Notes: generated by a model not told the origin, from the sequence alone. A stretch of 64,000 bases of DNA from Candidatus Omnitrophota bacterium (GCA_043732705.1 JAYTHE010000029.1:70445-134444); one strand, 5' to 3'. Positions 16,526 to 64,000 are shown, numbered from the stretch's first letter. Numbers and translations are program-made.

Positions 16526-17185
16526 TTACTTCGCTCCTGCTTCTTTCGTGGACTTCGTTCCGACAACACGCGCTTCAATCGCAGCCAATGCATCCTGATC
16601 AATAATCAAACGATCGCGCTGCAAAACATCGTACGCGGTAAAGTTACGCGCTTCTTTGACATCAATCCATTCAAGCATATTGCGTGAAGCTTTCTTCAAA
16701 TTTGCATCACTTTCTTTCACCACGCAAAGTGCGCGGCGGCCATCTGTCGGCTGCGCCTTCATCAAGTCAACCCATTCTTTGGTTTTGGATGTTGAAAGCT
16801 TGATACTTTCCAAAACAACCAATTTCTTTTCAGCCGCTTTAAAACTTAAAGCTGAAGCCAAAGCCGAAGTTCTCATTGACTGTGACAAATGCACGGAATA
16901 ATCACGTGTCAAAGGTCCAAAAATTGTTCCGCCGCCTTTCCACAAAGGCGAACGATTGGAACCCGCACGAGCACGGCCCGTTCCTTTTTGCTTCCAGGGC
17001 TTCTTACCGCCGCCGCTCACATTACCGCGAGTTTTTGTATGCGCGGTACCGCTGCGCAAATTTGCAGCATAACCATTGCGAACTAAGTTCAAAAGACGCT
17101 GATTCACCCGAACTCCGAAAACTTCCGGATTCAGGACAACTTCACTTTTCTTTTTTCCCTCTTTAGAGTAAAGGGGTGCCTTCAT
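16526..17185 (-). CDS. rplD: 50S ribosomal protein L4
   Basis: 219 aa, position between rplC and rplW. Confidence 0.9.
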   Translation of the reverse strand: MKAPLYSKEGKKKSEVVLNPEVFGVRVNQRLLNLVRNGYAANLRSGTAHTKTRGNVSGGGKKPWKQKGTGRARAGSNRSPLWKGGGTIFGPLTRDYSVHLSQSMRTSALASALSFKAAEKKLVVLESIKLSTSKTKEWVDLMKAQPTDGRRALCVVKESDANLKKASRNMLEWIDVKEARNFTAYDVLQRDRLIIDQDALAAIEARVVGTKSTKEAGAK

Positions 17186-43717: not shown

Positions 43718-44218
43718 ATGAAAGCGCTTTTCTTCTGGCTCTTTTCGGTCATTTCTGTCGTCAGTGCGCTGAGTATTTTATTTGTAAGACGGCCCACACG
43801 CGCTTTGCTCGGCCTTCTGGTTTCCATGCTTTGCTTAAGCGTACTTTATACTTTGCTGCATGCCTATTTCGTTGCCATCGTGCATTTGATTGTCTATGCC
43901 GGTGCGGTCATGGTACTTTTTCTTTTTGTGATCATGCTGCAAGGTTTAGGCGCTACAACACTTCCGCTTCTCGAGAGATTCAATAAAGGTCATTTGATTT
44001 TGACCGTTCTTTCTGGTGCGATATTTGTGACACTTTTAACCGTTATTTTTTCAAACGCCAAGCTGCCTGCCTTACAAAATCCGGAAGGCACGGTAGAAAA
44101 CTTAGGGCACATTTTGTTTTCCAATTATATTCTGCCCTTTGAACTTATTTCCGTTTTGGTTCTTCTGGGTATTTTTGCCGCCGTAACCTTAGCAAAAAAT
44201 GAAAGGGCGGCGGCATGA
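43718..44218 (+). CDS. nuoJ: NADH-quinone oxidoreductase subunit J
   Basis: 166 aa, 5 TM, NuoJ-like N-terminus. Confidence 0.85.
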   Translation: MKALFFWLFSVISVVSALSILFVRRPTRALLGLLVSMLCLSVLYTLLHAYFVAIVHLIVYAGAVMVLFLFVIMLQGLGATTLPLLERFNKGHLILTVLSGAIFVTLLTVIFSNAKLPALQNPEGTVENLGHILFSNYILPFELISVLVLLGIFAAVTLAKNERAAA

Positions 44219-44523
44219 CAACTATCCCTTCTGAATATTATTTAGTCTTGGCCGGCATTCTTTTTTCCATCGGTCTTTTCGGGATTTTACTGCGCCGTAA
44301 CATCCTGATTATTCTTTTGTGTCTGGAACTGATGCTGAATGCCGCAAATCTTGTTTTAGTCACCGCCTCTTCGGTTCATGGCCATACTGACGGCCAAATT
44401 ATGGCCTTTTTTGTGATGGTGATTGCCGCGGTGGAAGTCACTATCGGCCTCGCGATTGCTGTTTTACTTTTTAAAGAAAAAAATACCGTCGACACCGGAG
44501 AGATTACATCTCTCAAAGGTTAA
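44215..44523 (+). CDS. nuoK: NADH-quinone oxidoreductase subunit K
   Basis: 102 aa, LCLELMLNAANL motif. Confidence 0.9.
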   Translation: MTTIPSEYYLVLAGILFSIGLFGILLRRNILIILLCLELMLNAANLVLVTASSVHGHTDGQIMAFFVMVIAAVEVTIGLAIAVLLFKEKNTVDTGEITSLKG

Positions 44524-44615
44524 AACTTAAAAGTCAAAACTCAAAACCTAAAACTTGCTCGAACAACTTTGGGTTCCAAGCTATGGTTTTAAGATTTTAG
44601 ATTTAAATTTTGAGC
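44522..44615. repeat. ~90-bp palindromic MITE-like element (nuoK-nuoL spacer)
   Basis: aaaacttaaaagtcaaaactcaaaacc ... gctatggttttaagattttagatttaaatttt; arms mutually reverse-complementary. Confidence 0.6.
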
Positions 44616-44620
44616 TTATT

Positions 44621-46594
44621 ATGCTGAGTTTATGTTGGACAATTTTGGGATTGCCGCTTGCCGCTTCCGCGGTGATTTCGCTTTTATTAATTCCCGCCGA
44701 AAAGGCCGCTAAAGATAAACATTTTTTCCGCACAGCATCTGCCTTTTTGTCCGTTCTTTCGATGGCAGCCGCATTCGGCTTAAGTCTTTTGCTTCTGCAG
44801 AACTTCCGCAGCATTGAAAACCATAGCGAGGTTTTTGAAACTTCCCTGAATTGGATGACTTTACCGCAATTCCGGATTGAAATCGGTTTGCTTCTCAATA
44901 ATCTTACATTGCTGATGCTTTTAATTGTGACCGGCGTATCTTTACTCGTAGCACTATTCTCCTCCCGGTACATGAAAGGCGAAGAGGGCTATTCCCGTTA
45001 TTTTGCCGCGCTTTCTTTTTTTGCTTTTTCAATGCTCGGAATCGTGCTTTCCAATAATTTGATCCAGATTTTTATTTTTTGGGAATTGGTCGGTGTGGCT
45101 TCTTATCTTTTAATCGGTTTCTGGTTTGAAAAGCCTTCGGCCAGCATCGCATCAAAAAAAGCTTTTCTCGTAACGCGTATCGGTGACGTTGGCATGATGC
45201 TTGGCATTCTGCTTTTGCTCGGGCTATTACTCAAATCCGGCACTGGTACATTTAACTTTCTTGAGTTGGAAACAAGACTGCATCAGTCTGCTTTACCGGC
45301 CGGGCTTTTCACCTTGGCCTGCATTGGTATTTTTTTCGGAGCCGTTGGTAAATCGGCGCAGGTGCCTTTGCATGTTTGGCTGCCGGATGCGATGGAAGGT
45401 CCGACACCGGCCAGTGCATTAATCCACGCCGCGACCATGGTTGCTGCGGGCGTGTTCATGCTTGCCCGTCTTTTCTTTTTATTTGAAATGAGTCCAGTAA
45501 CACTGCAAATCATAGCTTGGACCGGTATTATCACCGCTTTTCTCGCGGCATCCATTGCTGTTGTTCAAAATGACATTAAAAAGGTACTCGCCTACTCCAC
45601 GCTTTCGCAGCTGGGATATATGGTCATGGCCGTCGGCCTTAAAAACCCCGAAGCCGGAATGTTTCATTTAACAACCCACGCTTTTTTCAAAGCCTTGCTC
45701 TTTCTTGGCGCCGGCAGTTTGATCCATGCTCTGCACACGCAGGATATATGGGAGATGTCGGCACTGGTCCGTTCCGACCAAAGTCATTCTGCCTCTGCGT
45801 CTTCGACGCAACCGGCACATCGCAGCTGGCTAAAAACTATTCCTATCACAGGTCTTACTTTTCTAATCGGAACTGCCGCGCTTGCAGGGCTTCCTTTTAC
45901 GAGCGGTTTTTTCAGCAAAGAAGAAATTCTCGGTGCGGCTTCGACCGGTCCCCGCATTGTTTTTGGAATGGCACTTGCGGTTGTTTTTCTGACAGCTTTC
46001 TACATGGGCCGCGCTGTTACAATTATCTTCTGGAGCTCCGCTCCAACCAGACACCCTCAAAAACATGTGGAAATACATGAAGATAATTGGATGATTACTG
46101 TTCCGCTGCTTATCCTCGCTGTTTTTTCTTTAATTGCCGGCTATTTACCTTTCAAATCATTTTTAGAGAATCAAACAGCGCATGCTGAAATTCATCCGCA
46201 GTGGCTGGCTGCGGCTTCAGTCACCCTTGCTTGCTGCGGACTTTTACTCAGTTTTGTTCTTTACCGCCGGTCTTCTTCGCCTCTGAGCCAAGGGCTCAAC
46301 CGGAAAAACCTCCTAACTCAACTCGTCACATTTCTTAAAGAAAAATATTATTTCGATAAATTCTATGACTGGTTCATCATTCATGTTCAGGAAAATATCG
46401 CGCGTGCCGCGGACAACTTCGAACGTGTCGTGCTTGAACGCGGCGGCAATCAAGGTTTGGCGGGTTTAACGCAATTTCTGGGAAATACAGCGCGTAAATT
46501 ACAAAACGGCTGGATCCAAAGCTATGCTCTTGTTTTCGCAATCGGCTTTATTGCATTGGTTGCTTATCTTGTATTTTGCGGAGCAAAGTTATGA
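44621..46594 (+). CDS. nuoL: NADH-quinone oxidoreductase subunit L
   Basis: WLPDAMEGPTPASALIHAATMVAAG motif; start moved to ATG 44621 after the MITE-like spacer element. Confidence 0.9.
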   Translation: MLSLCWTILGLPLAASAVISLLLIPAEKAAKDKHFFRTASAFLSVLSMAAAFGLSLLLLQNFRSIENHSEVFETSLNWMTLPQFRIEIGLLLNNLTLLMLLIVTGVSLLVALFSSRYMKGEEGYSRYFAALSFFAFSMLGIVLSNNLIQIFIFWELVGVASYLLIGFWFEKPSASIASKKAFLVTRIGDVGMMLGILLLLGLLLKSGTGTFNFLELETRLHQSALPAGLFTLACIGIFFGAVGKSAQVPLHVWLPDAMEGPTPASALIHAATMVAAGVFMLARLFFLFEMSPVTLQIIAWTGIITAFLAASIAVVQNDIKKVLAYSTLSQLGYMVMAVGLKNPEAGMFHLTTHAFFKALLFLGAGSLIHALHTQDIWEMSALVRSDQSHSASASSTQPAHRSWLKTIPITGLTFLIGTAALAGLPFTSGFFSKEEILGAASTGPRIVFGMALAVVFLTAFYMGRAVTIIFWSSAPTRHPQKHVEIHEDNWMITVPLLILAVFSLIAGYLPFKSFLENQTAHAEIHPQWLAAASVTLACCGLLLSFVLYRRSSSPLSQGLNRKNLLTQLVTFLKEKYYFDKFYDWFIIHVQENIARAADNFERVVLERGGNQGLAGLTQFLGNTARKLQNGWIQSYALVFAIGFIALVAYLVFCGAKL

Positions 46595-46613
46595 CACTGC
46601 ACGGGACACATTT

Positions 46614-48071
46614 ATGATTGCGGCATTACCTTTCATTCCTTATTTAGCAGCATTGGCAATTCTTTGCGTTCCGGCTGCAAAGGAAAAACTTTTACGCTGG
46701 CTTACGATCGGTGCAACCGGTGCTTGTTTGCTGATCACGCTGGTTTTAACGCAGCATTTTGACCGTACACTTCCAGGCTTTCAATTTGTTCATTCCTGGG
46801 ATTGCTTTGCAGAAATGGGCATCCGTTATCAGGTCGGACTTGACGGTATTAATCTTATTTTCTGCCTGTTGCTGGCCATTGTCGCTTTTGCCGGTGCTTT
46901 TATTGCTGTCAAAACAAAAAATCGCCTGAAAGAATATCTTTTTTATTATTTGATCTTAACGGGCAGCATGTTTGCCGTTTTTACAGTATTGAATGTTTTC
47001 TTCTTATATGTCTTTTATGAAATGACTTTGATCCCGGTTTTTGCAATGTTAGGAATCGCAGGTCATCCGGCGCTGAAAGAAAAAGGCGCGATGCATCTTG
47101 CGCTTTATATGATGGCCGGCGCAGTGATCGGCCTTTTCGCAATATTTAACTTATACGATATTCTCGGCCCGGCCTTCATGGACCTAACCCAGGCCAAGGC
47201 AGTTGCACTTTCTAATGCGCCATTATTAACGCCCGATGTTCAGAAGTGGCTCGCCGCGCTTTTGATTGTCGGTTTCGGCATCATGACTTCACTTTGGCCG
47301 CTTCATAACTGGTCGCCTTCCGCTTATGCCGCTGCGCCATCGTCTTTGTCCATGCTGCATGCCGGAGTAAAAATTGGTCCATATTTTCTGCTGCGCATTG
47401 CAATCGCTTATTTGCCGGCCGGCTTTCAGTTTTGGGCGCCTTCTTTAGCCGTTCTCGCGACCATCGGCGTAATCTACGGCGGTTTTGCAGCCATTCGCCA
47501 AAAGAGCTTGAATACGATGGCGGCTTTTTCAAGTGTCAGCCACATAGGCTATGTTTTGCTCGCTTTAGCGGCCCTCAATCTGACTTCATTATCCGCAGGA
47601 ATCCTGCTTATTTTTGGCCACGGGATCATGACCGCTTGTCTGTTCGGTTTGATCGGGCATTTAACCGCACAAGCCCATACGGACGGTATTCACGAATTCG
47701 GCGGACTCGGCAAATCACTCCCTTTCTTTTCTGTCTGTTTTATGCTGACCTCGCTGGCGTCATCGGGAATTCCGGGCTTTGCTAATTTTCCTGCGGAACT
47801 TTTAGTTTTTCTGAGCTCCTGGAAAAATTTTTCGGCCGCGGTTATTTTTGGAGTTTTTGGAGTTTTGATCACAGCGATTTATATGATCCGTGCGGTTCAG
47901 GCGCTTTGCTTCGGTACGGAAAGCAACCGCTCAAAAAACTTAACAGACATGACAACACTCTTTGATAAAACACCTTTTCTGATTTTATTGGCCGTGCTTT
48001 GCTTTTTCGGATTTTTTCCAAGCGCGCTCTTATCGATTATTCAACCGGCAGTCACAAGGCTTTTATCATGA
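46614..48071 (+). CDS. nuoM: NADH-quinone oxidoreductase subunit M
   Basis: antiporter-like; start MIAALPFIPYL. Confidence 0.9.
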   Translation: MIAALPFIPYLAALAILCVPAAKEKLLRWLTIGATGACLLITLVLTQHFDRTLPGFQFVHSWDCFAEMGIRYQVGLDGINLIFCLLLAIVAFAGAFIAVKTKNRLKEYLFYYLILTGSMFAVFTVLNVFFLYVFYEMTLIPVFAMLGIAGHPALKEKGAMHLALYMMAGAVIGLFAIFNLYDILGPAFMDLTQAKAVALSNAPLLTPDVQKWLAALLIVGFGIMTSLWPLHNWSPSAYAAAPSSLSMLHAGVKIGPYFLLRIAIAYLPAGFQFWAPSLAVLATIGVIYGGFAAIRQKSLNTMAAFSSVSHIGYVLLALAALNLTSLSAGILLIFGHGIMTACLFGLIGHLTAQAHTDGIHEFGGLGKSLPFFSVCFMLTSLASSGIPGFANFPAELLVFLSSWKNFSAAVIFGVFGVLITAIYMIRAVQALCFGTESNRSKNLTDMTTLFDKTPFLILLAVLCFFGFFPSALLSIIQPAVTRLLS

Positions 48072-49489
48072 GCAGCTTAGGCCTTTCTCATTTTATTCCG
48101 GATTTAATCAGCGTCGGACTGCTGGCTTATTTCCTGACTGAAGCCATCATCACGGGACAAAAAGACCACCGTTCTATTTTCAATCCTTTGGCCGTAGGAA
48201 CCGTAATTCTCGGCGCCGCGCTTTTCTTTTTCGGACGTAATACCGGCACGGGCTTCGGCGGAATGGTTTCAAACGATCTTTTTGCGCTTTATTTTAAAAC
48301 TTTCTTTACGCTGGTCTTTTTCGTGATTGTTTTCATATGCCGTGATTTCTTCAAGGATTCGGCCGCCAAACAGCAAGAATTCGGATTAATTCTCTGGTGC
48401 CCGTTGATCGGCCTTTATTTTCTCGCTTCCGCTTCCCATTTCTTGATGCTTTTCATAGCGCTTGAAATATTGACCATGGCTATTTACCTGCTTGCCGCTT
48501 ACAGCCGGCGGACGATTTCAGTTGAAGCAGGCCTTAAATATTTAATGATGGGATCAATCGCTTCGGGTTTTACGATTTTCGGAATCGCATTGCTTTATAT
48601 GCAAACCGGCACACTTTCATTCGCGGAAATCGCAGCCGTAAAACAAACTTTATTCGCCAGCCGCCTAGGTTTGCTGGCGCTGCTTTTTATTTTTGCGGGA
48701 TTGGGATTTAAAGCGGCAACCTTTCCTTTTCAGCTTTGGGTTCCGGACGTTTATCAAGGTTCGCCGGCGCCCGTTTCCGCACTCATGTCGGTTGCTTCCA
48801 AAGCCGCGGGATTTTTGCTGATCATTCGTTTTTTTGGCATGACAGTCGGGCCATTGAATGCGCATTGGAAAATGGCTTTGTCCGTGTTGTCTCTTTTTAC
48901 TTTGCTCTACGGTAATTTGGGTGCTTTGGCACAAACGAGCTTTAAGCGCCTCATGGGCTATTCCAGCATCGGCCATGCGGGTTATTTGATGCTTGCCATT
49001 GCCTCAGGCACAGCTTCAAGCACAGCGGCCATCTTGTATTACTTCACGGGTTACGCAGCAAGTACTTTGGCTGTTTTTTATGCCATTACCTTGGTTGAAA
49101 AAGCAATAGGCTCGGATTCAACCGAAAATTTTGAGGGCCTTTCAAAAACATCGCCTTTCCTTTCCGCTGTCCTTTTTATTGCACTTTTATCTTTAGCCGG
49201 TGTTCCACCGCTTGCAGGCTTTATGGGGAAATTCTGGATTCTCTTTTTAGGACTACAGGCAGGTTTAGGATGGCTTGTGTCGGCCGGACTGGTAATGGTT
49301 GTGGTAGGGCTCTATTATTATCTTTCGATCGCAATCAAAATGATTTTTCGCGAACCGAAACTTAAGGCGGAAATTCAAATTTCAATTTCAGCTAAATTAA
49401 TTCTTTGTGTTTTAACCCTTCTCTCGCTCAGCATGGGATTGTTGCAGGCGCCGCTAATTCGAATCGCCGCGGCCGCCATCGGCCGATAA
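48068..49489 (+). CDS. nuoN: NADH-quinone oxidoreductase subunit N
   Basis: antiporter-like; ATGA overlap with nuoM. Confidence 0.85.
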   Translation: MSSLGLSHFIPDLISVGLLAYFLTEAIITGQKDHRSIFNPLAVGTVILGAALFFFGRNTGTGFGGMVSNDLFALYFKTFFTLVFFVIVFICRDFFKDSAAKQQEFGLILWCPLIGLYFLASASHFLMLFIALEILTMAIYLLAAYSRRTISVEAGLKYLMMGSIASGFTIFGIALLYMQTGTLSFAEIAAVKQTLFASRLGLLALLFIFAGLGFKAATFPFQLWVPDVYQGSPAPVSALMSVASKAAGFLLIIRFFGMTVGPLNAHWKMALSVLSLFTLLYGNLGALAQTSFKRLMGYSSIGHAGYLMLAIASGTASSTAAILYYFTGYAASTLAVFYAITLVEKAIGSDSTENFEGLSKTSPFLSAVLFIALLSLAGVPPLAGFMGKFWILFLGLQAGLGWLVSAGLVMVVVGLYYYLSIAIKMIFREPKLKAEIQISISAKLILCVLTLLSLSMGLLQAPLIRIAAAAIGR

Positions 49490-50326: not shown

Positions 50327-50797
50327 TTAGGATTGTGCCGGGGCCACAGTTGTCAAGGCATCTGCGCTCGCGGAACTATCCGCGGCAGTCGCAGCGGCGT
50401 TTTCGGCAGCAGCAGCCGCATCTTTTTCAGCGGATTGTGTTTGTTCCGCGCTTGCTTTTTTAGCCGCATGTCGTTTCTTGGCATGTTTTTTCGTATGTTT
50501 TTTAGCTTTTCGCTTAGCAGCCGTCTTTTTCTTGCTTTTGCTCTTTTTAGGCTTTTTAGCTTCCGTCGTTGTAGTTGTCGTCGTCGCATTCGCTGTTGTC
50601 ACAGCAGGAGTCGTGGTCGTTGTTGTAGTCGTCGCGTCTGCGGCCGGAGCTGCATAAGGGTCATTTGAGTCTGCCGCAACAGTTGTTGTCGCTACCGCGG
50701 GCGCTGCAGCTGCATCCTCAGCAACCACGGGTGCCGGGACAGTCATAATAAGAACCCCAAAAATAACCGCTAAATTTTTCAAGAACTCGCTCTTCAT
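50327..50797 (-). CDS. secreted low-complexity Thr/Ala/Lys-rich protein
   Basis: signal peptide, poly-Thr runs, Lys-rich middle. Confidence 0.5.
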   Translation of the reverse strand: MKSEFLKNLAVIFGVLIMTVPAPVVAEDAAAAPAVATTTVAADSNDPYAAPAADATTTTTTTTPAVTTANATTTTTTTEAKKPKKSKSKKKTAAKRKAKKHTKKHAKKRHAAKKASAEQTQSAEKDAAAAAENAAATAADSSASADALTTVAPAQS

Positions 50798-53224: not shown

Positions 53225-53824
53225 TTACTGCGAGAGAACTTTTTGGAGATCGCGCTTCGCGACAACTTGCGCATAAAGCGGATTGGGATTAAGCAGCTCA
53301 ACAATATCGAGTTTCATACCTTCGCGCGTATAAGACGCCATATCAAGAATCTGCGTATCCATGCGAATCGCGTCTTCGGGACAAGCCTCAACACAAAATC
53401 CGCAAAAAACACATTTTCCAAGATCAATATCAAAACTCTTGGGACGTTTTTCAATATTTACGTCGGGATGTTCCTCCGCCACAATCGTGATGCACTTTGC
53501 GGGACAAACTGTTTCACACATCATGCACGCCACACAGCGCGGTGAATTATCCACGCGTTTGGTTAAACGATGCCGTGTGCGTAATCGCGAAGGTGGCTTG
53601 CGTCGCTCTTCGGGGTACATGATGGTTACACCCGCGCGAATTAATTTAAAAAGCCCAATCGCATGCATCGTGTGAAAAAAAAGATTTTTCCAGAAATGCC
53701 CGCCGGTAATCCATACGCCGCGGATGATTTCAGGAACATAAATCTGCTGCCAGAAGTTGAGTACAGGCCGGTCAACGACCTTGGTTTTTATCGTCATAGG
53801 GATTGGAATTGTAGCACAACTCAC
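53225..53824 (-). CDS. nuoI: NADH-quinone oxidoreductase subunit I (2x[4Fe-4S] ferredoxin)
   Basis: CVACMMCETVCP and CVFCGFCVEACP motifs; GTG start at 53824 or ATG at 53797. Confidence 0.85.
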   Translation of the reverse strand: MSCATIPIPMTIKTKVVDRPVLNFWQQIYVPEIIRGVWITGGHFWKNLFFHTMHAIGLFKLIRAGVTIMYPEERRKPPSRLRTRHRLTKRVDNSPRCVACMMCETVCPAKCITIVAEEHPDVNIEKRPKSFDIDLGKCVFCGFCVEACPEDAIRMDTQILDMASYTREGMKLDIVELLNPNPLYAQVVAKRDLQKVLSQ

Positions 53825-53832
53825 GCTTGGCG

Positions 53833-56800
53833 TTAAGCAGCAGAAAGCGTTAATTGGACGCCAAAGATTTGGGCTGCCAGGGCATCCAAGCCCACACTGT
53901 GAAACAGTTTGGCAATACCTTGGTCCGTGAGAATTCGATAGTCACCCATTTGCCGTAGTAAAGTAACCGTCTCAGAAGAATCATCCTGGCTCATCAAAGC
54001 TGAACGACGCGCATATTTTCCATGCGTTTGTGCGGCTAAGTCTTGCGGACTGACAAAGACCAGGCCTTGTCCCTTGAACCCTTTCGCCTCGATTAAATTT
54101 TTGAATTCCAGCCGTTGCTGTTCGTTTTCAGCATAAATCGCAAACAGTTTATCGCCCAATACTCGTTTATCTTGTAAGAATCCCTTTTGATGCACAAGTG
54201 CAGGACTTAAAACAACCAAATCCGCCGGTGATTTCATAATTTTATCCATAACAGTCGGCAACACCGGAGCACCAAAATATTGCCCATAAAACCTACTAAA
54301 CTCGGAACGCGTCATAGTATTAACAAATGACACTGAAAAAATATTCCTAGCCATTCTGGTGACTTCAATCTGAGATTGCGGCGAAACTATCAGTTCTTTT
54401 GTCCGCATTTCCGAGCGTAGCACTTTATCGGCAGCAACTGCGTTGTCTGGCAAATTCCACCTATAAATTAGTTCACGAATAAGAATACGATTGACCATTG
54501 ACTGCCTTGAAAATTCACGCTGCTGGCCTGGGTTTTTGACTTGTCTCATCAAAGTGAGCGACAACTCTCTGCTGAATGGATTAACAACGTGGTGCACAAG
54601 ACCCATTGCACCATCTTCACTCATTCTATTAAGAACCTCTTCGAGAGATATTCCTCGAAGATCTTGCATTGTTTTCAGCAAAGTCTGAACCTCTTGATCA
54701 TTCAAAAGCTCCGTATTTTTCATGCCATGAAAACGATCCGCCAATGTTTTTTCATCGTCGGAGCCATAAATCCATTGATCTCGAGCCACCAACGAATCTA
54801 AATATTTAGAAAAATTAAACTCCGTTTTTCTTTTTTCTTTTGCATCCCAAGCAAAAAATGATTTTGTTGTAAATGTTGTGTCTCGAGAAGCCGCTTTTAA
54901 GCGTGCCAAAACTAAAGAGAAACTTTGATCTTCGCTGTTTCTCAAAACCTCTTGCGATTCGGAGCGTGGAACGGTCACAGCTGGCGCAGTTTTTATTTCA
55001 AGTGGTTCAATAAAGCCGGTTTGCAAGCTATCACCACTTGGTATCACATGAACTAAAAATCCTTTGCGGGCTCCATCGCTAGCTAGATTTTCTTTCAACT
55101 GCATTTTTAAATTGCCTTTCACACCACTTTTTAGTTTGATTTCTACTGCCTCCTGGTCAACGCTATTGATTTTGATACGAACCAATTTCAAAATCTTTCC
55201 GGTATGGCTCAAATCTTTCCTTTGATCACGCTCAAGCTCTGCTGTAAAAGAAACTTCGAAGCGCGCAGCTTGGGTCCGCACTCCCGGGATAATTCCAAAT
55301 TGATAAATGCCGCTAACCTTAACACGTTTTCCAGGACGAAATAGTCCGCGGCTCGCTACTTGATTATGTAACTCTTCATCACGCGAATTATCGGGGCGCA
55401 AAGTCATAACAACACCAAATCTGTCCGGCGGTTCGCCTCTCGGTCCTTCTCCGTCCCGCGCTTCTGAACGGACACGCTTTGCAATAGCTCTTTTTATTTT
55501 TCCGAATAAAACTTTCCCATCTGGCGATGCAAGATAATGCAAGGTATGCGAATATTCTCCGGGATGTTTCCAAATATCAGTCTCAAAAAAATTAACGGAC
55601 ACGAGGTGAAACTCTTCGATTTCGTTAAGATTGTAATTTTCTTTTATTTTTTTCAACTCGGCATCAGAAACAAAATATAAATACGCCGTTGTAAACTCGC
55701 GATTGACCCCGTCTTCAAGATCATATTCACGATATATACCATTTTGTTTAGTAAGCGGAATGAACCGGTCTGAGTCAATACGAATACCCACTTCCTCTTC
55801 CGCTTCGCGGCCTGCGGCCGCAATCGGCAATTCGCCGAAATCAACATGGCCGTTCACCGAAACCTGCCATTTCCCCTTGGACGAAGCTTTATTCTGACTG
55901 CGTTTTTGAAACAACAATCTTCCTTTTGAGTCTACAAAATAAATATGTGCCGACATGTGATAAAAACCCTTTTTATGCGCCTCGTCTTTCTTTGCTTTGC
56001 GCCCGGAAAGAATATTGCCATGCTTGTCAGTTAAAGCCACCCCTTCAACGGCTTCGCTTGACTCCACCCCCATTTTTCCGCCCTTTAAAATTAAAACATC
56101 CTGCCGCATTTCGGAGCGCGGTGCTGCAAGCCCTTGGCTCGTGAAACCTTCCTGTCTTACGCTCTTTTCTGGTCTCACCTCAGACGGAGGAAGAATGAGA
56201 TCCGCGGGTTCTGCTTGCCGCAATAAATCAAATTGCTGCAGCGCATCCATCAACCCTTGAAATAAACTTTCTTCCTTTTTTTCTTCGGCGCTTAACGCTT
56301 CCATTTGCTGCCGAAAAGCACGGATTTTTTCTTCGACCTGGCGCTGTGCTTCTAAATCGGCTTTGTAGTCTTCATAATCGGCGCGGCCATGCAGATTTTC
56401 GATCATTCGGTTTTGATAATAATCCCGCTGCCATTGCAACTCAGACAGAGAGCCTTCTTTTGGGGCCGCTTGCCTTGCTTGAGTAGATTTTTCTGATTCA
56501 GTCATGTGTTTACGTACCGCTGCCTTTAATGCTTCTTGCCTTTGGTTTGTGAAATTAATATGAAACGGCCCACGAAGAGCTAGGTGACGGACCAAATCTA
56601 AATATTCAACTGTTTCATCCGACAAAGACCGCAGCCAATCTGCGATTCGTTTAAGTCTGGGCAAAGTGTCTTGCAGGAGAGGTTCAAACGAGTCAACCGG
56701 AAAAAATCCACGATTCATATAAGGTGTGGCAAAAAGCGTTGGCTGTCCGACCTTATTTAAAGCAAAGAATACGCCCCGCCCAAACTCGTCTTCTTTCCAC

Positions 56801-59800
56801 AGAGGTACATGGCTGCGAAGCCATTGCGCCGTGTTACGAATCGAAAAATAATTTTTTTTCAACCAACTATTAAGTAATTCAAACTCATGCTGATAAATGT
56901 CAGCCGCTAAAAATTCAAACCATACCGCTCGTCCTCCTTTAAATTGAAACGCATGGTTGTTTGAGCGATGCGCAGAGAAAACAACTTCCCATAAAGGCAT
57001 CAAACAAGCTTGCAGCAGCTGCCCGTCTGCCAATAATCCTTTTGCGGCAATTTGGAACGCAGTCATCGCGGGATTCGCCGTAAGAGCAGCGAATGCCCCT
57101 ATTAAATTTTGCATAAAAATTCGCCGCGTTTGGGAACGATCTAAATAATCTGCCGTGTGCAAAAACAAATCCTCCGCTAGCATCGGAATGCTTTCCACGA
57201 AACGCTGCGGCGACACAATTCGCCGCGCAGGTTCGTTTGCATTCTCGGCCTTTATTTTTTCAAAAACGGGCTGCCAATACGCAAACGCAAAGGGCTGTTT
57301 TGAAAGAAACTCTGAAAATTCTTCCGCAAGAGCGTCCTTCACTTCAAGCTTGGGCATTTTGAAACGCAGCCATTTCACTAAAAACTTGTTTTCTTCCCTT
57401 TGAATTTTTTCATGAATAAACCTTTCCGCGAGCTTAAGCAATGCCTGTTTATTCCCGACATCATCTCCCCCAACAATCAGCTCATTACGCATTTCGGAGC
57501 GTGCCATTTCCCGGTAAAGCGCAAAATGCTTTTCGGCATTCGCTTGCTGCGAAAAACTTTGAACTGCAAAAGCGCGCCCCGCTTTCCCCATAGCTCTGCG
57601 TTTTTCCGGATGATCCGCCAAATCCAAAATTGCTTCGGCCATCGCTTCTCTATCGCCTTGCTTCACAAAAACTCCCGCATCCGGGCTCAACGCTTGATCA
57701 ACGCCTTCGGCCTCATAGCTCACAACCGGAACTTCCATCGCTCCCGCCTCGATCGCCATCAATCCCAAAGATTCATAGCGCGTCGGAAACACGACTAAAT
57801 CGCTTGCGCGATAACCTTCGCGCACTACCGTTGGCGATCCCGCCGGCAGTATTTGAAAACAATCTTCTAAGTTTTCTCTTCTGATCCCTACAGCAACCGC
57901 GAGATTAATCTCACGGTTTTCATCTTGAGGCCCCATCAATACAAACTGGAATTTAAAATCAGGCCGCTTCTCCCTCAAAATTCTGGCGACTTCAATCAAT
58001 TCTGGCTGGTTTTTTTGTTTGCTGAACCGTGCAGGATAGAAAATCATGAATCGGTCTTTTTTATCGCCCAACATCTTTTCTCTGGCTTTCGCGCGATCTA
58101 CTTTTGCCGGATCTTCAAAATCAGTATCAATGCTGGCTTTGATTAAACGGGTCCTTGAGTCCCGCAATCGCGGAAGAGCAACGGTCGTATACCCGACCAA
58201 AACAGGCACAAGCCATGGCGCGGCCAAATTAAAAATCAAACGGATAACCCATTTAAGCGGCCAAAACCAACGCGCTTTGCCGGCATATAATCGATAAGGC
58301 ATATGATTGGTCGTCACAACCGGGATGCGCTTAATCCCAAAAAGCGCAAAATCAAAAGGCGAGTTCATTTGATGTGAATGAATCACATCGACAGGCTCAG
58401 ATCGCGCAATCTCAGAAACAACCGCGCGGATTTTTTTCATCCATCGAAAATCTCCCAATGGAGTATTGGGATAAGATTCAAAATCAGAAATCGGATGAAA
58501 AATCAATGTCCCTTGACCGTGTTTGAGTTCACCCCCTACTGTGTTGGCTTTTTCGGCGCGGTAAACAATATGAATGCGCACGGGATAACGCCGCGTCAGC
58601 TCTTCGTTAAGGCGGTGCACATAAGTCATCATGCCACCTTTGCGTAAAATTTCCCAATCCATGACCTGAACAATTGTCAGTTCGCGAACGGACGAACCTG
58701 CTCTCCGCATTTCGGAGCGGGCGTCCCATTTTTTTCGAAATTCAATCCATGGCTGAAACTGATTGAATTCAAAATGATCGGGAGCGGCGTCCACCCCGCT
58801 TGCTAAGCTCTGAACGGCAGCAATATCACGCCGGTTGGAATGTCCCGAATCCGCGTCCATTGTCCCTTCGATTAAATCAATAATCGCTTTAAAGCTTAAA
58901 TTTGAATTATCCAAATCAATCCAAAACTCGGTTTTGTAATTTGTCATTTCATCGCTCTGATTACCAACTTGAATCCCACGGCGACCATAACGATCGATTA
59001 GTATTCTTTGTTGTTCGGTGGGCAGTCCTGATGAACGGTAATAACTTTCAACTTCTACTTTCGGCTTAATTACATAACTAAACTCATATGCTGAGGGACC
59101 AAAACCGGTCACAATTTCATCGGTATTCAATAGTAGGTTTAACTCCCTAAAAAAATCTTTAACTGCTCCTTCGGTGATCCGTGATTCGGAACGACGATCA
59201 GAAGCTTTTTGATATTTCCAGCGAATTGCATGATCACGCGACACATTGATTAATTTACCTTCCGGCCGGCCTTGTGTATTAAGCAATTTCACCGGAATCA
59301 TTTCCGGCCCGCCGGCTGTGTCTTCTGAAACTTCCAGAACGATGAGTGCATCCACAGTGCCAATAATGATGCGGTCACCCATTTTAAAATCAGTATCAGC
59401 CTCTATATTATAAACGGGGCTATCAGACAAAAATCCATACCGTGATCGTTTAGTAAGAAAACTTATCTTTTCAATTTGGGCCGATGAGCTGTAATCCGCA
59501 TTGCTTTTTTGAGCGCGCGTATCACGATGCAAAAAAAGCAATCGATGCTCAGCGACTGACTTACGGCCTTGGCGCTGATAGGGATTTTCAAGATACCACT
59601 TCGCTAATTTTCTCTGCGGTTCAAGGCTCAGATTTTGAGCCGCCCAAGCAAGCGCGTTATCACGCGCCTTGCGGTCCGCGGGAGAAAACATCTGACCCAA
59701 ATAAATTGCCTCTAAAAGAATTTCAATATACGCAACTGACCAATGATTGTTACGTTTCGCATTTTTCCAAACCTCATCTTTCAGCGGCTTCAATTCATCA

Positions 59801-62800
59801 AAAAGGAATTGAATCGCCTTTTTCCCGCCTGCAAAAGACTGCATCAATGTCCAAGCCCACTTGTCTTCATAATAATCTTCAAGACTTACTACTTTAGACG
59901 GAATAGAAAATTCTAAAATCGCATCCGCGAACGAAAGCGCCTGTTGCGAGATTTGAAACGCAGGACTCATTGCTATTCCGGAGGTAAGATTTGAAGTAAT
60001 CGCTGACAACAAAGCCGTGCGGTCTTTTTTTAAAAATATTTTTTCAAATTTTCTGATGTTTGCTGCCTGTTCAGGAAAAGTTTTTTTAACTCGTTCTATA
60101 TAAGCCCAGTCAACATCACGCATTTCGGAACGACTCACCACACCAGATCTCGGATCTAACGAAACAGATCCGGGATCTGGGGGGGCCAACCGCATTTCGG
60201 AGCGGTCGTTTTGTTTTTTGGAAAGTGATTTGATTTCGTTCCATCGCGGCGGTCGGTTAATAAGGTTCGCAGCAATTGCGGCGAGTCCGTACCCTATAAA
60301 ATCTTTGGGGTCATAAGTCGTCCAAATAAATGCGCTTGGTAGCTGCACATATTTAGTCATTAACTCTTCGAGAGCAAACACAAGCGGAACTCCAACATTC
60401 GAAAGCAATAAGGCTGTCCGCAAATCGGCAAGCCATCCTTTATAAACGAAAATAATTGCGGTCACGCCATACCCAAACAAACTGCACGAAAGAGGGAACA
60501 ATAAATCCGGCAGCCAATCGAGCCATGTCCAATAATTTTCTTTCCCGATCGTTTGGGATCGAAGAACAAGAAGCATCTGATCCCACATTAAAAACGCTCC
60601 GCCGAAGCCCAACATCTTGATTGCATGGCTCAACTGGGTCGAAAAAAGCGCGCGACTCACCGAACTAGATCCCGGATCTAACGGAACAGATCCGGGATCT
60701 GGGGGGGCCAACCGCATTTCGGAACGGGTCCTTTGTTCTTTAAAAAGAGCTTTGATTTCGTTCCATCGCGGTGGCCGGTTAATAAGGTTCGCGGCAATTG
60801 CGGCGAGTCCGTACCCTATAAAATCTTTGGGGTCATAAGCTGTTCCAAGACCCCATTCCGGAACAGGCACCCACTTCGTCACGAGTTCTTCGATCGCAAA
60901 GGCAACTGGAACTCCAATGTTCGTAAGCAATAAGATAGCCCGTAAATCAGCGACCCATCCTTTAAATAAGGCAAAAATGGCTCCCCCGCTATATCCAATT
61001 AAGCTACAACTAAGAGGCACAAATAAATCTGGCAACCAATCAAGCCATGTCCAATAGTTTTCTCTCCCTATCGTTTGGCGCCGTAGCAAGCAAAGCGCTT
61101 CATCGAACACAAAAATGAGCCCACCCCACGTCATCATCCGAATGGCATGTTTAAGTTGCGCAATCGAAAGAGAGCGAATATCTTTGGCTTCTCCTTTGCT
61201 CGGTTTTTTACGCGATTCGGAACGAACGAAGCCGGGTGATGTGATTGAATCTAACCCTCTTATTTCTGATCGGAACTGATAAGCCGTAATGAGCTGCTGC
61301 ATCTGTTCGCCGGGACTTAGTTGTCCGGCCAGTATATTTAAAAATTGTCTTTCGCTTGCATGAAGTTTGTTCAACTCCGCATAAGCCTTTTGCGCCCATT
61401 CCTCGACTGTCCCCGGACTCTCCGCTAAATGAATCTCTCTTAGGGCAGCCTCCGCTCTTATAACCGCATCAATTTGTTTCAATGCGTACGCATGCGAAAA
61501 TTCGGACTCAGAGTGTCCAATCGCGGCCCCTTCGTCTTGTAGCAAATGGAGAATCGCGCGGACCACTGGTAACCTTGCCCATCCGTCCAGGATCTCTTGG
61601 ATGCCGGAAGCGTACACATACCATCGGATGTCACTTTCTGACCAATCCGCACTGCCGGTCCAATCTTTAAACCACTGCCTTAGAAGGTCGTAGCCGTCGG
61701 GGTTGATTTTAAAACCCAGTCCATATTCTGACTGGGTCTCCGGAAAATCAGTTTCGGCTTCGGCAGGTAATTTACTGCGATAGAGCGCGACAGCATCCAA
61801 TATTTTTTTCCGCAATTTTAAATCACCAAGCGCCTCCTCGGCTTTTCGTTTCTGGAGATCTTTTTTAACTTCAGCCGCATACAGTTTTCTATCTTGTTCG
61901 ACCTGCCTGACGTTTACGCAAATACTCACAACAATTCCGGTTTCAGCATGAAGGTAATAGATGCGCCCACCATCTTTTGAAAGCGCGATTTTTTTCCAAA
62001 TATGTCCGTTCGTTTTAAATATTTTTGCGCGCTCCAGACTTTTCACAACCCATAAATTGCCAAAAGATTGGGGCATGTTTTTCGATTGGTTTTGTATTGA
62101 TCCGGAAATAAATTCCCCTTCCTTTATAAACTCACCGGTATCATCCGCTTTGATTTTTAATTCCTGTAATTTTCCTGAAAAAACAGGCGTCTGGACCGTG
62201 GGCAAATAACCAATATAAGTGATTTGCATCATCCCAATACCGGCCGGCCACAAACCATATTTTTGCCCCGCGGCCGCTTGATGCTGAGTTAACGCCGCTA
62301 AAAGCTGCGGGCTAACAAGAGCGGGCGAGGCCGAATTTTCCAATTTCCAATCACGCATTTGCGGTAAAAAGTGATACAGCCGATCCGAGTTTTGGCCTTG
62401 CATGTAAAGATGCACAAGCAAAGTGCGATAAACCAACAAGTCTTGTGCGGATAATTGGTTTAAATCATGCGGATGCCAGCCTGTCGGGTACATGGCATAC
62501 AAAGCAAAGATTTTGGGATCGGTCCGAGTCCAGGTTAAATCATTTGATTGAACGGCAAATCGAAGACGTTTATAGCCTGAAAGATCGGGCCGGCCCGCAT
62601 AAGACTGCATTTCATTTAAAATGGCCAAAACTTGCTTTCTTTTGGGTTCATCCAACTTTTCAAAAAGGTCAATTCCAAACAAGCCTATTTTTAATCTCTT
62701 CAGAATTTCTACGGAATCAAAATGAGTTTGATTATTAAATATGGTTTGCAACTCATGGGCGCGCTCTTCCGGATAAGCCGTGACATACTGCCGCACTTCA

Positions 62801-63969
62801 TTAGATTCAGGAGAATTGAAGGGAATGGTTGCTAAATAATAACCCGCAACAATTCTCGCTTTTGCTTCTGAAAATTCTGAAATGTTTTGAAAATACTTCC
62901 TCAAAGCGGCCGGAGACGCACCCATGACTGCCGATAATAATGCGATGGTTTTGGCGCCAAAAATTTCGAAATGCATCAGAATGAGCCCATGATAACCTTC
63001 GAACATTTGTTCTGCGTTAAATCGATTCATCGGGTCATCACTCGCGCCTTGCTGAAGATCAACAACATGCTTTTTAAATTCTTCATATGCCGTTAAAAGG
63101 CTCCCAGCCGACAGATTGTCTTTCACTTCCAAAAGCCTGAAAAAATCTTCGTGGGCGTTTTTTTTGCGCTCGATTCCGGCGGCTTTAAAAAATGGCTCCG
63201 CCTCTTGCACATAGCCGCGAAGCCTTTCGATTTGCAATTTCTCCGAAAAGCGCTCTTCCGAAAAACTTTGACTATGATGATCTTCCGCGATTTTTTTTAA
63301 ATTATTTGTAAGCTGAGCATATTCGACAAGATTCATGATTTTGCTTACCAAGATAGCCAGCTTTGCTAAATGCGGGCCCGCCGCACCCCATCGCCCCCGC
63401 CCTTTGGTTGTTTGGGAAGCGAGATAGTTTTTAACTTGGACATAAGTGACACGCGTACCCAAATTCCGCCATAAACTAAAAAGTGTTTCCAGCTCTTTTA
63501 AAATTAAATCATCACGGGCAGAATGAATATTTAGCTCAGCCAATAAATCTAAGGCGCTATAAATTTCTTCCGTCGTTGGAATCGCTTGCCTCTCCGCGTT
63601 TTTGACAAAAGCAGCCGCTATTTCCACTGTATGGACATGAGCCGAAACAGCTTGAGAACTACTTTGTTTTTGGATTCTTTCACGCATATCCCACGCACGT
63701 TGATACTCACTCTTTTGTTTCCAATTCTTTTCTCCTGGGCCGGCAGATATAACAACGTTCAATGCCTCAAGAATATCCGTATCGCCGGCTTGAATCCTTT
63801 CAGAATAAAGCTTGGCAACAAGATCGCGGGGATCGGGAACATGAATTTGCCGTTCAACTAAATTGCTTCTGTTACCGTAAAACGTCATGGCGCTGACCCA
63901 TGCCGCGACTTGGTCAACTGTCTCGCGCCGCAAACCATTTGCACTTTCCAGAGCAAGCCACTCGGACAT
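53833..63969 (-). CDS. giant multidomain protein (3378 aa as read from ATG 63969; no in-frame stop upstream before window end): GT4 glycosyltransferase + Nudix hydrolase + duplicated 4-TM modules + recurrent RSEMR linkers
   Basis: single uninterrupted ORF; GT4 C-domain motif YESLGLMAIEAGAMEVPVV...EAEG; Nudix box GHVDFGELPIAAAGREAEEEVGI; tandem ~175-aa hydrophobic repeats. Confidence 0.8.
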   Translation of the reverse strand: MSEWLALESANGLRRETVDQVAAWVSAMTFYGNRSNLVERQIHVPDPRDLVAKLYSERIQAGDTDILEALNVVISAGPGEKNWKQKSEYQRAWDMRERIQKQSSSQAVSAHVHTVEIAAAFVKNAERQAIPTTEEIYSALDLLAELNIHSARDDLILKELETLFSLWRNLGTRVTYVQVKNYLASQTTKGRGRWGAAGPHLAKLAILVSKIMNLVEYAQLTNNLKKIAEDHHSQSFSEERFSEKLQIERLRGYVQEAEPFFKAAGIERKKNAHEDFFRLLEVKDNLSAGSLLTAYEEFKKHVVDLQQGASDDPMNRFNAEQMFEGYHGLILMHFEIFGAKTIALLSAVMGASPAALRKYFQNISEFSEAKARIVAGYYLATIPFNSPESNEVRQYVTAYPEERAHELQTIFNNQTHFDSVEILKRLKIGLFGIDLFEKLDEPKRKQVLAILNEMQSYAGRPDLSGYKRLRFAVQSNDLTWTRTDPKIFALYAMYPTGWHPHDLNQLSAQDLLVYRTLLVHLYMQGQNSDRLYHFLPQMRDWKLENSASPALVSPQLLAALTQHQAAAGQKYGLWPAGIGMMQITYIGYLPTVQTPVFSGKLQELKIKADDTGEFIKEGEFISGSIQNQSKNMPQSFGNLWVVKSLERAKIFKTNGHIWKKIALSKDGGRIYYLHAETGIVVSICVNVRQVEQDRKLYAAEVKKDLQKRKAEEALGDLKLRKKILDAVALYRSKLPAEAETDFPETQSEYGLGFKINPDGYDLLRQWFKDWTGSADWSESDIRWYVYASGIQEILDGWARLPVVRAILHLLQDEGAAIGHSESEFSHAYALKQIDAVIRAEAALREIHLAESPGTVEEWAQKAYAELNKLHASERQFLNILAGQLSPGEQMQQLITAYQFRSEIRGLDSITSPGFVRSESRKKPSKGEAKDIRSLSIAQLKHAIRMMTWGGLIFVFDEALCLLRRQTIGRENYWTWLDWLPDLFVPLSCSLIGYSGGAIFALFKGWVADLRAILLLTNIGVPVAFAIEELVTKWVPVPEWGLGTAYDPKDFIGYGLAAIAANLINRPPRWNEIKALFKEQRTRSEMRLAPPDPGSVPLDPGSSSVSRALFSTQLSHAIKMLGFGGAFLMWDQMLLVLRSQTIGKENYWTWLDWLPDLLFPLSCSLFGYGVTAIIFVYKGWLADLRTALLLSNVGVPLVFALEELMTKYVQLPSAFIWTTYDPKDFIGYGLAAIAANLINRPPRWNEIKSLSKKQNDRSEMRLAPPDPGSVSLDPRSGVVSRSEMRDVDWAYIERVKKTFPEQAANIRKFEKIFLKKDRTALLSAITSNLTSGIAMSPAFQISQQALSFADAILEFSIPSKVVSLEDYYEDKWAWTLMQSFAGGKKAIQFLFDELKPLKDEVWKNAKRNNHWSVAYIEILLEAIYLGQMFSPADRKARDNALAWAAQNLSLEPQRKLAKWYLENPYQRQGRKSVAEHRLLFLHRDTRAQKSNADYSSSAQIEKISFLTKRSRYGFLSDSPVYNIEADTDFKMGDRIIIGTVDALIVLEVSEDTAGGPEMIPVKLLNTQGRPEGKLINVSRDHAIRWKYQKASDRRSESRITEGAVKDFFRELNLLLNTDEIVTGFGPSAYEFSYVIKPKVEVESYYRSSGLPTEQQRILIDRYGRRGIQVGNQSDEMTNYKTEFWIDLDNSNLSFKAIIDLIEGTMDADSGHSNRRDIAAVQSLASGVDAAPDHFEFNQFQPWIEFRKKWDARSEMRRAGSSVRELTIVQVMDWEILRKGGMMTYVHRLNEELTRRYPVRIHIVYRAEKANTVGGELKHGQGTLIFHPISDFESYPNTPLGDFRWMKKIRAVVSEIARSEPVDVIHSHQMNSPFDFALFGIKRIPVVTTNHMPYRLYAGKARWFWPLKWVIRLIFNLAAPWLVPVLVGYTTVALPRLRDSRTRLIKASIDTDFEDPAKVDRAKAREKMLGDKKDRFMIFYPARFSKQKNQPELIEVARILREKRPDFKFQFVLMGPQDENREINLAVAVGIRRENLEDCFQILPAGSPTVVREGYRASDLVVFPTRYESLGLMAIEAGAMEVPVVSYEAEGVDQALSPDAGVFVKQGDREAMAEAILDLADHPEKRRAMGKAGRAFAVQSFSQQANAEKHFALYREMARSEMRNELIVGGDDVGNKQALLKLAERFIHEKIQREENKFLVKWLRFKMPKLEVKDALAEEFSEFLSKQPFAFAYWQPVFEKIKAENANEPARRIVSPQRFVESIPMLAEDLFLHTADYLDRSQTRRIFMQNLIGAFAALTANPAMTAFQIAAKGLLADGQLLQACLMPLWEVVFSAHRSNNHAFQFKGGRAVWFEFLAADIYQHEFELLNSWLKKNYFSIRNTAQWLRSHVPLWKEDEFGRGVFFALNKVGQPTLFATPYMNRGFFPVDSFEPLLQDTLPRLKRIADWLRSLSDETVEYLDLVRHLALRGPFHINFTNQRQEALKAAVRKHMTESEKSTQARQAAPKEGSLSELQWQRDYYQNRMIENLHGRADYEDYKADLEAQRQVEEKIRAFRQQMEALSAEEKKEESLFQGLMDALQQFDLLRQAEPADLILPPSEVRPEKSVRQEGFTSQGLAAPRSEMRQDVLILKGGKMGVESSEAVEGVALTDKHGNILSGRKAKKDEAHKKGFYHMSAHIYFVDSKGRLLFQKRSQNKASSKGKWQVSVNGHVDFGELPIAAAGREAEEEVGIRIDSDRFIPLTKQNGIYREYDLEDGVNREFTTAYLYFVSDAELKKIKENYNLNEIEEFHLVSVNFFETDIWKHPGEYSHTLHYLASPDGKVLFGKIKRAIAKRVRSEARDGEGPRGEPPDRFGVVMTLRPDNSRDEELHNQVASRGLFRPGKRVKVSGIYQFGIIPGVRTQAARFEVSFTAELERDQRKDLSHTGKILKLVRIKINSVDQEAVEIKLKSGVKGNLKMQLKENLASDGARKGFLVHVIPSGDSLQTGFIEPLEIKTAPAVTVPRSESQEVLRNSEDQSFSLVLARLKAASRDTTFTTKSFFAWDAKEKRKTEFNFSKYLDSLVARDQWIYGSDDEKTLADRFHGMKNTELLNDQEVQTLLKTMQDLRGISLEEVLNRMSEDGAMGLVHHVVNPFSRELSLTLMRQVKNPGQQREFSRQSMVNRILIRELIYRWNLPDNAVAADKVLRSEMRTKELIVSPQSQIEVTRMARNIFSVSFVNTMTRSEFSRFYGQYFGAPVLPTVMDKIMKSPADLVVLSPALVHQKGFLQDKRVLGDKLFAIYAENEQQRLEFKNLIEAKGFKGQGLVFVSPQDLAAQTHGKYARRSALMSQDDSSETVTLLRQMGDYRILTDQGIAKLFHSVGLDALAAQIFGVQLTLSAA

Positions 63970-64000
63970 CGCGAGCGTTTTAACATAATCATTCTCAGAG

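Follow-up and report, generated by a model that had tools for sequence, protein, structure and literature searches.

A recurrent pentapeptide in a modular giant protein

We analysed a 64,000-nucleotide stretch of DNA from a Candidatus Omnitrophota bacterium (GCA_043732705.1, JAYTHE010000029.1:70445-134444), called the window here, whose minus strand encodes part of a modular giant protein that repeats the pentapeptide RSEMR. The C-terminal part of this gene occupies 53833-64000 (3,388 codons, open at the window end), and a single minus-strand open reading frame (ORF) at 53833-63969 carried all RSEMR sites in the ORF scan and its translation. The ATG at 63969 encodes an internal Met; the 31 nt at 63970-64000 are in frame as SENDYVKTLA and match the full-length protein P0001. 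We retrieved P0001 from NCBI by an exhaustive HMMER search with residues 1060-2259 of the window protein as the query. It has 7,377 aa and is encoded on a 156.7-kb contig, and the window ORF is identical (100%) to its last 3,378 residues. An earlier note on the window described a giant ORF; the frame continues past 64000, and the window holds only the C-terminal 46% of the P0001 gene. Upstream of the window, P0001 begins with a signal-peptide-like segment followed by a conserved domain of ~500 aa, the N-domain, and its upstream modules had weak matches to P-loop ATPase (AAA), M23 peptidase, methyltransferase, and HEAT repeats.

Seven RSEMR copies and five variants (RSESR twice, RSEIR, RSEAR, and RSESQ) made up 12 sites in the window, all in the one minus-strand ORF. 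In the order of the protein these were RSEIR at aa 900 (61258-61272), RSESR at aa 916 (61210-61224), RSEMR at aa 1082 (60712-60726), aa 1256 (60190-60204), and aa 1280 (60118-60132), RSESR at aa 1593 (59179-59193), RSEMR at aa 1751 (58705-58719), aa 2157 (57487-57501), and aa 2618 (56104-56118), RSEAR at aa 2834 (55456-55470), a degenerate RSESQ at aa 3002 (54952-54966), and RSEMR at aa 3185 (54403-54417). The composition of the window protein predicted 0.0018 occurrences of RSEMR and 0.08 of RSE.R. The seven copies and the RSESR variants that the earlier note reported are thus present, four of them at the coordinates it gave and three displaced by 1-2 nt (57487, 60118, and 60712 for its 57488, 60119, and 60710). 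The full-length protein contained 22 sites, 11 RSEMR and 11 variants.

At the DNA level, the exact pattern CCGCATTTCGGRRCG matched four times in the window compared with 0.02 expected from shuffled sequences. Allowing up to three mismatches, CCGCATTTCGGAGCG had eight matches within 54403-60726, consisting of the seven RSEMR sites and an unrelated three-mismatch match at 57124, and three further three-mismatch matches scattered elsewhere in the window. A six-frame search of the whole window found no RSEMR outside the giant ORF and two stray RSESR (11440 on the minus strand and 62520 on the plus strand). The earlier note would have taken copies of this 15-mer in unrelated genes as a sign of compositional bias; with no RSEMR in any of the six frames of the remaining 54 kb, the observation survived this check. 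The x(E)LIVxG tail proposed to follow the motif did not hold up: it occurred after only 3-4 of the 7 RSEMR sites and was not conserved across the family described below.

The sites coincided with module boundaries, as the earlier note had proposed, and the inter-motif segments in the window protein were 153-456 aa long. A complete GT4 glycosyltransferase module (57502-58704; aa 1756-2156; Pfam PF00534/PF13439) was immediately preceded by the RSEMR at aa 1751 and immediately followed by that at aa 2157, with the Pfam match itself spanning aa 1778-2155. Stand-alone GT4 proteins matched this inter-motif segment end to end in HMMER searches (residues 7-394 of 400 in P0004 and 4-392 of 396 in P0006). 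An AlphaFold2 (AF2) model of aa 1736-2181 had a predicted local distance difference test (pLDDT) score of 82 and a confident fold from ~8 residues after the first RSEMR to the second. A Nudix hydrolase module (55471-56103; aa 2623-2833) was bracketed by the RSEMR at aa 2618 and the RSEAR at aa 2834, and it matched Pfam PF00293 over aa 2670-2795 and an NCBIfam isopentenyl-diphosphate isomerase-like model over aa 2639-2807.

Two tandem hydrophobic, putative membrane units (60205-61209) were 60% identical from motif to motif with a period of 174 codons. The first starts at the RSESR at aa 916, the RSEMR at aa 1082 joins the two, and the second ends at the RSEMR at aa 1256. A third unit was reduced to a 19-aa remnant (LAPPDPGSVSLDPRSGVVS; 60133-60189) that ends at the next motif, at aa 1280. 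The remnant matched the start of unit 2 up to GTG AGT CG and then became the motif, so that the join lies at the first Arg codon.

Five further motif-bounded modules had no family match. These were module A (59194-60117), which matched the stand-alone proteins P0032 and P0086, and modules B (58720-59178), C (56119-57486), D (54967-55455), and E (54418-54951), all on the minus strand. Pfam gave no match for modules A-F or for the N-terminal 899 aa of the window ORF, a word-indexed search for relatives of module C returned none, and scans of genome and metagenome contigs with a single-protein query found no relatives. Exact-sequence look-ups of the window ORF, of P0001, and of rpoB likewise had no match. 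The RSEMR at aa 3185 precedes the C-terminal module (53836-54402; aa 3190-3378), which ends in ...LTLSAA and carries a C-terminal [AS]-Ala signature common to the whole family.

A delimiter across Omnitrophota giant proteins

We defined the family of Omnitrophota N-domain modular giant proteins from loci that share the N-terminal domain. An N-domain profile searched against GTDB representative genomes gave 535 matches that were confirmed by tblastn, and 80 loci (L001-L080) were kept. All of these came from Omnitrophota or unnamed metagenome-assembled genomes, often with several loci per genome and some in tandem. P0001 fits the family in having a signal peptide and a DAH...EAQ...GGFH N-domain, both upstream of the window, together with delimiter sites and an [AS]-Ala end.

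The motif was frequent across the family and rare beside it. In 94 long family ORFs totalling 213 thousand aa (kaa) there were 370 occurrences of R-[SAP]-E-x-R (1.74 per 1,000 aa), compared with 17 in the 200 kaa of 544 neighbouring ORFs (0.09 per 1,000 aa) and with 0.076 per 1,000 aa expected from composition. The median inter-motif length was 226 aa. Conservation was confined to the five residues, with small residues at positions -1 and -2, and the flanks were rich in P/G/S/A (0.36 vs 0.27). Position x was commonly A, V, M, L, or S, and also T, with Met at 48 of 368 sites. Even the distant relatives P0003 and P0155 had RSELR, RSEIR, or RSEAR after the N-domain and after the GT4 module. We read RSEMR as the version used in this genome of a delimiter, [A/S/G]-R-[S>A,P]-E-x-R, that marks the modular giant proteins throughout the phylum Omnitrophota, and the suggestion that it separates modules was strongly supported and extends to the whole family.

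The favoured form of the delimiter differed by genome. RSEMR was favoured in the genome of P0001 and in L001, RSESR in CAZDVO, RAEVR in CAZMFE, RPE[SA]R in CAZGID, and RSELR in CAYRBY and CAYSSX. Two sites had an identical pentapeptide with a probability of 0.28 when both lay in one locus, 0.26 when they lay in separate loci of the same genome, and 0.088 when their genomes differed. Three Omnitrophota genomes repeated [GA][AS]SLG and had essentially no RxExR (the loci with alternative delimiters were L013, L023, L032, L040, and L058). P0120, a high-GC protein of 6,782 aa that carries a related GT4 module, contained GARLA 21 times and GARLS once at spacings of 106-533 aa, and it ended in ...SRAA. 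Co-evolution with one reader encoded by the genome would be expected to produce such concerted amino acid change across unlinked genes while leaving their nucleotides unhomogenised, and the cleavage sites of viral polyproteins likewise drift in concert at the peptide level between lineages.

Nucleotide sequences pointed the same way. The conservation of the 15-mer that the earlier note saw is real in this gene, but homogenisation or a nucleic-acid-level function did not stand as the general explanation, because amino acids were what the 370 family sites conserved. Copies encoding the same pentapeptide were 3.3 nt apart when they came from one genome and 3.6 nt apart when they came from two, synonymous differences existed even among the copies in the window, and the repeat extended no further than ~15 nt. 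The Glu codons of the motif were unbiased and the last Arg used all six of its codons. Since DNA encoding the same peptide was no more alike within genomes and the dialect was common to unlinked loci, the motif appears to be read as a peptide by a genome-wide factor. We consider a peptide-level module delimiter with a common reader to be well supported.

The remaining codons were not neutral. In the window, Ser was TCC at 9 of 12 sites (12% in the gene as a whole), the last Arg was CGG at 7 of 11 (17%), and the first Arg was CGY at 11 of 12. Scored against the usage of each ORF, the family showed the same tendencies. The first Arg was CGC at 161 sites and CGT at 124, with 90 and 68 expected, and AGR at 17 with 88 expected (p = 2e-38 for the three classes in one test). 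Ser was TCC at 125 sites and AGY at 26, with 64 and 90 expected (p = 5e-19). Non-Met codons at x had G as the third base at 160 sites (98 expected), and the last Arg was CGG at 129 sites (92 expected; p = 8e-5). Codon-pair context was rejected as the cause, as non-motif R-S, S-E, and R-S-E showed normal usage. A Ser that is ancient, constrained, and exchangeable with Ala and Pro would be expected to retain TCN, but this does not account for the opposite codon preferences of the two arginines. A ribosome pause at the boundaries or a DNA- or RNA-level constraint is a possible source. RNA folding at the motif was unremarkable (-16.4 vs -14.7 +/- 4.8 kcal/mol) with no consistent pairing.

Modules changed position between proteins with the motif at their edges. 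The closest relative of P0001, L001 (UBA2337), had an N-domain 55% identical to that of P0001, and the two proteins had only the N-domain and the GT4 module in common. The latter lay at aa 1760-2167 in L001 and aa 5750-6156 in P0001, with RSEMR on both sides in each case, and the homology between the two copies (48% identity) began right after one RSEMR and stopped at the next. Family-wide, 39.5% of the starts of internal homology blocks were within 15 aa of a motif, compared with 6.1% under random placement. One module of ~1,300 aa was found at five different positions in five proteins and started at a motif each time.

The C-termini were also distinctive. Among complete family ORFs, 33 of 37 ended in Ala and 28 of 37 in [AS]-Ala (SAA, RSA, KSA, and ASA), compared with 22 of 533 other ORFs. 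The [AS]-Ala end, at 53836-53856 on the minus strand of the window, resembles an ssrA-like or C-terminal-processing tag, or a secretion tag. The C-terminal domain was too divergent across the family for its alignment to yield invariant catalytic residues.

A few loci departed from the common pattern. L069 (9871-21424) encoded a family member that had, in place of the delimiter, a long tandem-repeat array (LG.GV 21 times and VL.VE 17 times). In L031, a single in-frame stop codon (16861-16864), 80 aa past a motif, parted two long family ORFs, which could be due to sequencing error, a pseudogene, or readthrough. Several other apparent ORF splits (such as those in L011 and L065) were runs of N in the assemblies.

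Proposed cleavage and other readings of the delimiter

The proteins share one architecture of a signal peptide, a conserved N-terminal hydrolase-like domain, a variable string of modules, and a C-terminal module ending in [AS]-Ala. The modules comprise self-contained enzymes, membrane units, and modules without an assigned function, with a delimiter at every junction that a common factor appears to read as a peptide throughout the genome. In the mechanism that we favour, this factor would be a site-specific endopeptidase that cuts the delimiter and frees the modules, as occurs in viral polyproteins and MARTX toxins. The same short consensus did recur at the junctions of functional units, as in a polyprotein. 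Modules carrying their own delimiters could be duplicated, lost, or transferred between paralogues in frame, which would explain the combinatorial architectures. Cleavage is the best-supported way for the delimiter to be read, and we place its probability at about 0.5.

The leading candidate for the protease, acting in cis or in trans, would be the N-domain. Every motif-bearing family ORF with a visible N-terminus began with it. The N-domain has a split alpha/beta core with a helical insertion, a conserved N-terminal x-x-H, Glu, and Arg, and a C-terminal G-x-x-H, and its fold was assigned to the EreA/ChaN-like/TIKI/TraB superfamily, with the EreA-like structures 2rad and 2qgm, HopBA1, a TraB protein, EreC, and ChaN as named relatives. 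TIKI and RRSP, both site-specific proteases, belong to this superfamily, as do esterases and a haem-binding protein. Among the neighbours of family genes at the 80 loci there was no conserved protease or recombinase; these were housekeeping genes, with an M48-like peptidase in only four loci. The lack of a conserved adjacent protease fits one encoded in cis or elsewhere in the genome. Similarity between N-domains correlated with similarity in dialect (rho = 0.34, p = 0.02), though in an underpowered comparison of only 10 ORFs with non-independent pairs. The N-domain may be the delimiter protease, but we regard this candidacy as doubtful.

The fullest form of the proposal is that Omnitrophota giants are bacterial polyproteins in which a TIKI/EreA-like leader protease, or a genome-encoded partner, would cut a lineage-specific pentapeptide (RSExR, [GA][AS]SLG, or GARLA) and so free enzymes and membrane units by the dozen, either on the surface of the cell or into its prey. 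We offer it tentatively, as a conjecture that could well be wrong in one or more of its parts.

Several observations weigh against cleavage or against the N-domain as its agent. A docking site for some other partner would fit the data as well as a cleavage site, and a single protease may not have access to sites that lie to either side of the membrane units. The junctions were tight: the motif abutted the last GT4 helix and the first strand of the next module followed 1-8 residues on, so that a protease would have little linker to act on. The low pLDDT at the motifs is weak evidence, being partly an artefact of an alignment whose depth did not include the flanks. A purely peptide-level role does not account for the motif-specific synonymous bias. 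The fold assignment of the N-domain was only moderate, and neither a profile search of PDB sequences nor a Foldseek search gave it a significant match. Membership of the EreA/ChaN/TIKI superfamily would also be compatible with an esterase or haem-binding role, and the existence of stand-alone secreted N-domain proteins of ~505 aa without attached modules, and of ~1,000-aa proteins without the delimiter (P0158, P0162, P0165, and loci L015, L021, L025, L054, and L079 between them), indicates that the function of this domain is not always tied to a polyprotein.

The delimiter may instead be a signal between modules that is never cut, for instance a place where an export or insertion machine, a chaperone, or an assembly factor docks or pauses, in a protein that works as one piece. 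The evidence for a common peptide-level reader applies equally to this possibility and the tight junctions suit it. The rare CGG, which was enriched at the last Arg and makes up 4% in the housekeeping genes of the window, could slow the ribosome at module boundaries, and the presence of both an N-terminal signal peptide and a C-terminal [AS]A tag points to a chain that is handled whole. We nevertheless think it unlikely, since a conserved hydrolase-like domain heads each protein, the modules are complete stand-alone enzymes, suggesting independent work, and we know of no non-proteolytic docking or pause system of this type. Less probable again is a linker or domain cap with no reader, in which R-S-E-x-R forms a charged turn or a salt-bridged cap between folds. 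The motif was always at domain edges, its charged R/E/R could cap helices, and in the AF2 model it directly extended the last GT4 helix. The same motif, however, flanked unrelated folds (GT-B, Nudix, membrane units, and all-helical modules), whole genomes swapped in the chemically unrelated [GA][AS]SLG or GARLA, and genome-wide dialects of the variable residue are unexpected for a passive linker.

Explanations at the nucleic acid level fared worse. If the 15-mer were a microhomology or recombinase site and the peptide its by-product, homology blocks would be expected to stop at the motif, as they did. The period of the tandem membrane units equalled the motif spacing, the truncated third unit was joined at AGT CG, the synonymous bias favoured CGY-TCC-GAR-NNG-CGG, and the seven RSEMR copies in the window differed by a mean of only 1.2 nt. 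Set against this, the family conserved amino acids and not bases, with unbiased Glu codons, all six codons at the last Arg, and a variable x. Copies of the same peptide were 3.3 nt apart within genomes, a repeat of ~15 nt is too short for homologous recombination, no recombinase was conserved nearby, and all repeats were direct and without internal symmetry. Recombination joints, which the earlier note had raised, are accordingly improbable as the function of the motif; the DNA-level part of that idea was poorly supported, and the in-frame shuffling of modules was supported by the relocated GT4 module and the truncated membrane unit. The idea survives as a secondary effect only, in that in-frame rearrangements do occur at the motif. 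The sites also differ from integron attC and shufflon sfx cassettes, having no conserved neighbouring recombinase and no conservation as DNA. We see very little prospect for a role in RNA or in translation initiation, in which the AUG within RSEMR would be an internal start or the 15-mer an RNase or structure element that splits the giant mRNA. Sequences after RSEMR do look like protein N-termini (MR-x-ELIV...) and many genes in the window have no Shine-Dalgarno sequence. Met was a minority at x across the family, where A, V, L, S, and T were also common, and this ruled out the internal start; the frame stayed open through all 22 junctions, the internal AUGs had no preceding Shine-Dalgarno sequence, and the gene had neither unusual folding energy, consistent pairing, nor an Rfam match (Rfam matched only two tRNAs in the window).

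Comparison with known systems and surroundings of the gene

MARTX toxins and viral polyproteins are the nearest functional parallels to this architecture, which is a member of neither class. Pfam and NCBIfam matched no RTX glycine-rich repeats and no C80 cysteine protease domain, either in the window protein or in the 4,000 aa that precede it. The processing sites of MARTX (Vibrio RtxA) are a loose Leu-X, and the Omnitrophota delimiter is a strict pentapeptide. MARTX toxins also carry a type I secretion signal, in place of which the Omnitrophota giant, whose cleavage is putative, has an N-terminal Sec-type signal peptide and, in addition, internal membrane units. Viral polyproteins, such as those cut by picornavirus 3C, potyvirus NIa, or leader proteases, are alike in encoding one long ORF with the same short consensus at its junctions, a consensus that is uniform within a genome and drifts between lineages, and a protease (here a candidate) in the same chain. 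They are unlike it in that the Omnitrophota proteins are those of a cell, a bacterium whose genome carries several paralogous genes, and have no fixed module order. Viral proteases are chymotrypsin-like or papain-like, and no viral protease fold was matched in the giant protein by Pfam or NCBIfam; the candidate here is EreA/ChaN/TIKI-like. Bacterial precedents for cuts marked by repeated short recognition sequences are gingipain/HagA of Porphyromonas gingivalis and the cyanobactin precursors. These are much smaller, have few unit types, use other proteases (C25 for gingipains and S8 for cyanobactins), and show no comparable module shuffling.

Omnitrophota encode the longest predicted proteins known, at up to ~147,000 aa, and the literature leaves open whether such giants stay intact as single working chains or undergo cutting, and at which points. 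Post-translational cleavage has been suspected for the giants named Archaeovorins, with the cleavage points unknown (West-Roberts et al. 2023). The Archaeovorins and the 'multi-enzyme' class resemble the present family in belonging to the same phylum, in their complement of GT, methyltransferase, peptidase, NUDIX, P-loop ATPase, and HEAT domains, and in having a signal peptide and transmembrane helices. P0001 contained the Archaeovorin domain set, with GT4 and NUDIX in the window and the weak methyltransferase, M23, and AAA matches upstream. Archaeovorins exceed 30 kaa, however, and P0001 has 7.4 kaa. V. archaeovorus, the source of the Archaeovorin type protein, has a protein of 39,678 aa and a public proteome data set (PRIDE PXD025008). 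A later paper on the 'multi-enzyme' class of Omnitrophota giants equates the Archaeovorin name with a dockerin architecture (Nielsen & Lui 2026), and Pfam and NCBIfam found no dockerin in the window protein or in upstream P0001. Published work on Omnitrophota giant proteins names C39 and S8 peptidase domains, where this family has the N-domain instead. We found no mention of the delimiter motif, its dialects, or the [AS]A C-terminus in the open-access papers and preprints on Omnitrophota giants that we read.

A strict and searchable delimiter allows objective parsing of modules for structure prediction and annotation, provides precise cleavage-site predictions that are open to test, and points to a way in which module arrays could evolve combinatorially. 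If the proposal is correct, the delimiter would be the missing cleavage map for the largest known proteins and would explain how their modules are reshuffled in frame. Were cleavage confirmed, cells would have an equivalent of the polyprotein processing of viruses, complete with site dialects that co-evolve, and a new specificity class of TIKI/EreA-like peptidases might come to light.

The remaining 54 kb of the window held housekeeping genes, including rpoB/rpoC-sized ORFs and genes for ATP synthase subunits, nuoJ, and nuoI. The nuoI gene (53225-53824, minus strand) lies 8 nt downstream of the stop codon of the giant gene on the same strand, and the two are probably co-transcribed. The complex I operon is split, with nuoJ-nuoN at 43718-49489 on the plus strand, apart from nuoI. 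The codons CGA, CGG, AGA, and AGG together made up 54% of Arg codons in the giant gene (53833-63969, minus strand), compared with 11% in rpoBC, the ATP synthase genes, and the nuo genes, which suggests low expression or a different evolutionary history of the giant gene. A minus-strand ORF at 50327-50797 encodes a 156-aa protein that combines a signal peptide with a low-complexity stretch rich in Thr and Ala (TTTTTTTTPAVTT...) and a Lys-rich tail resembling histone H1.

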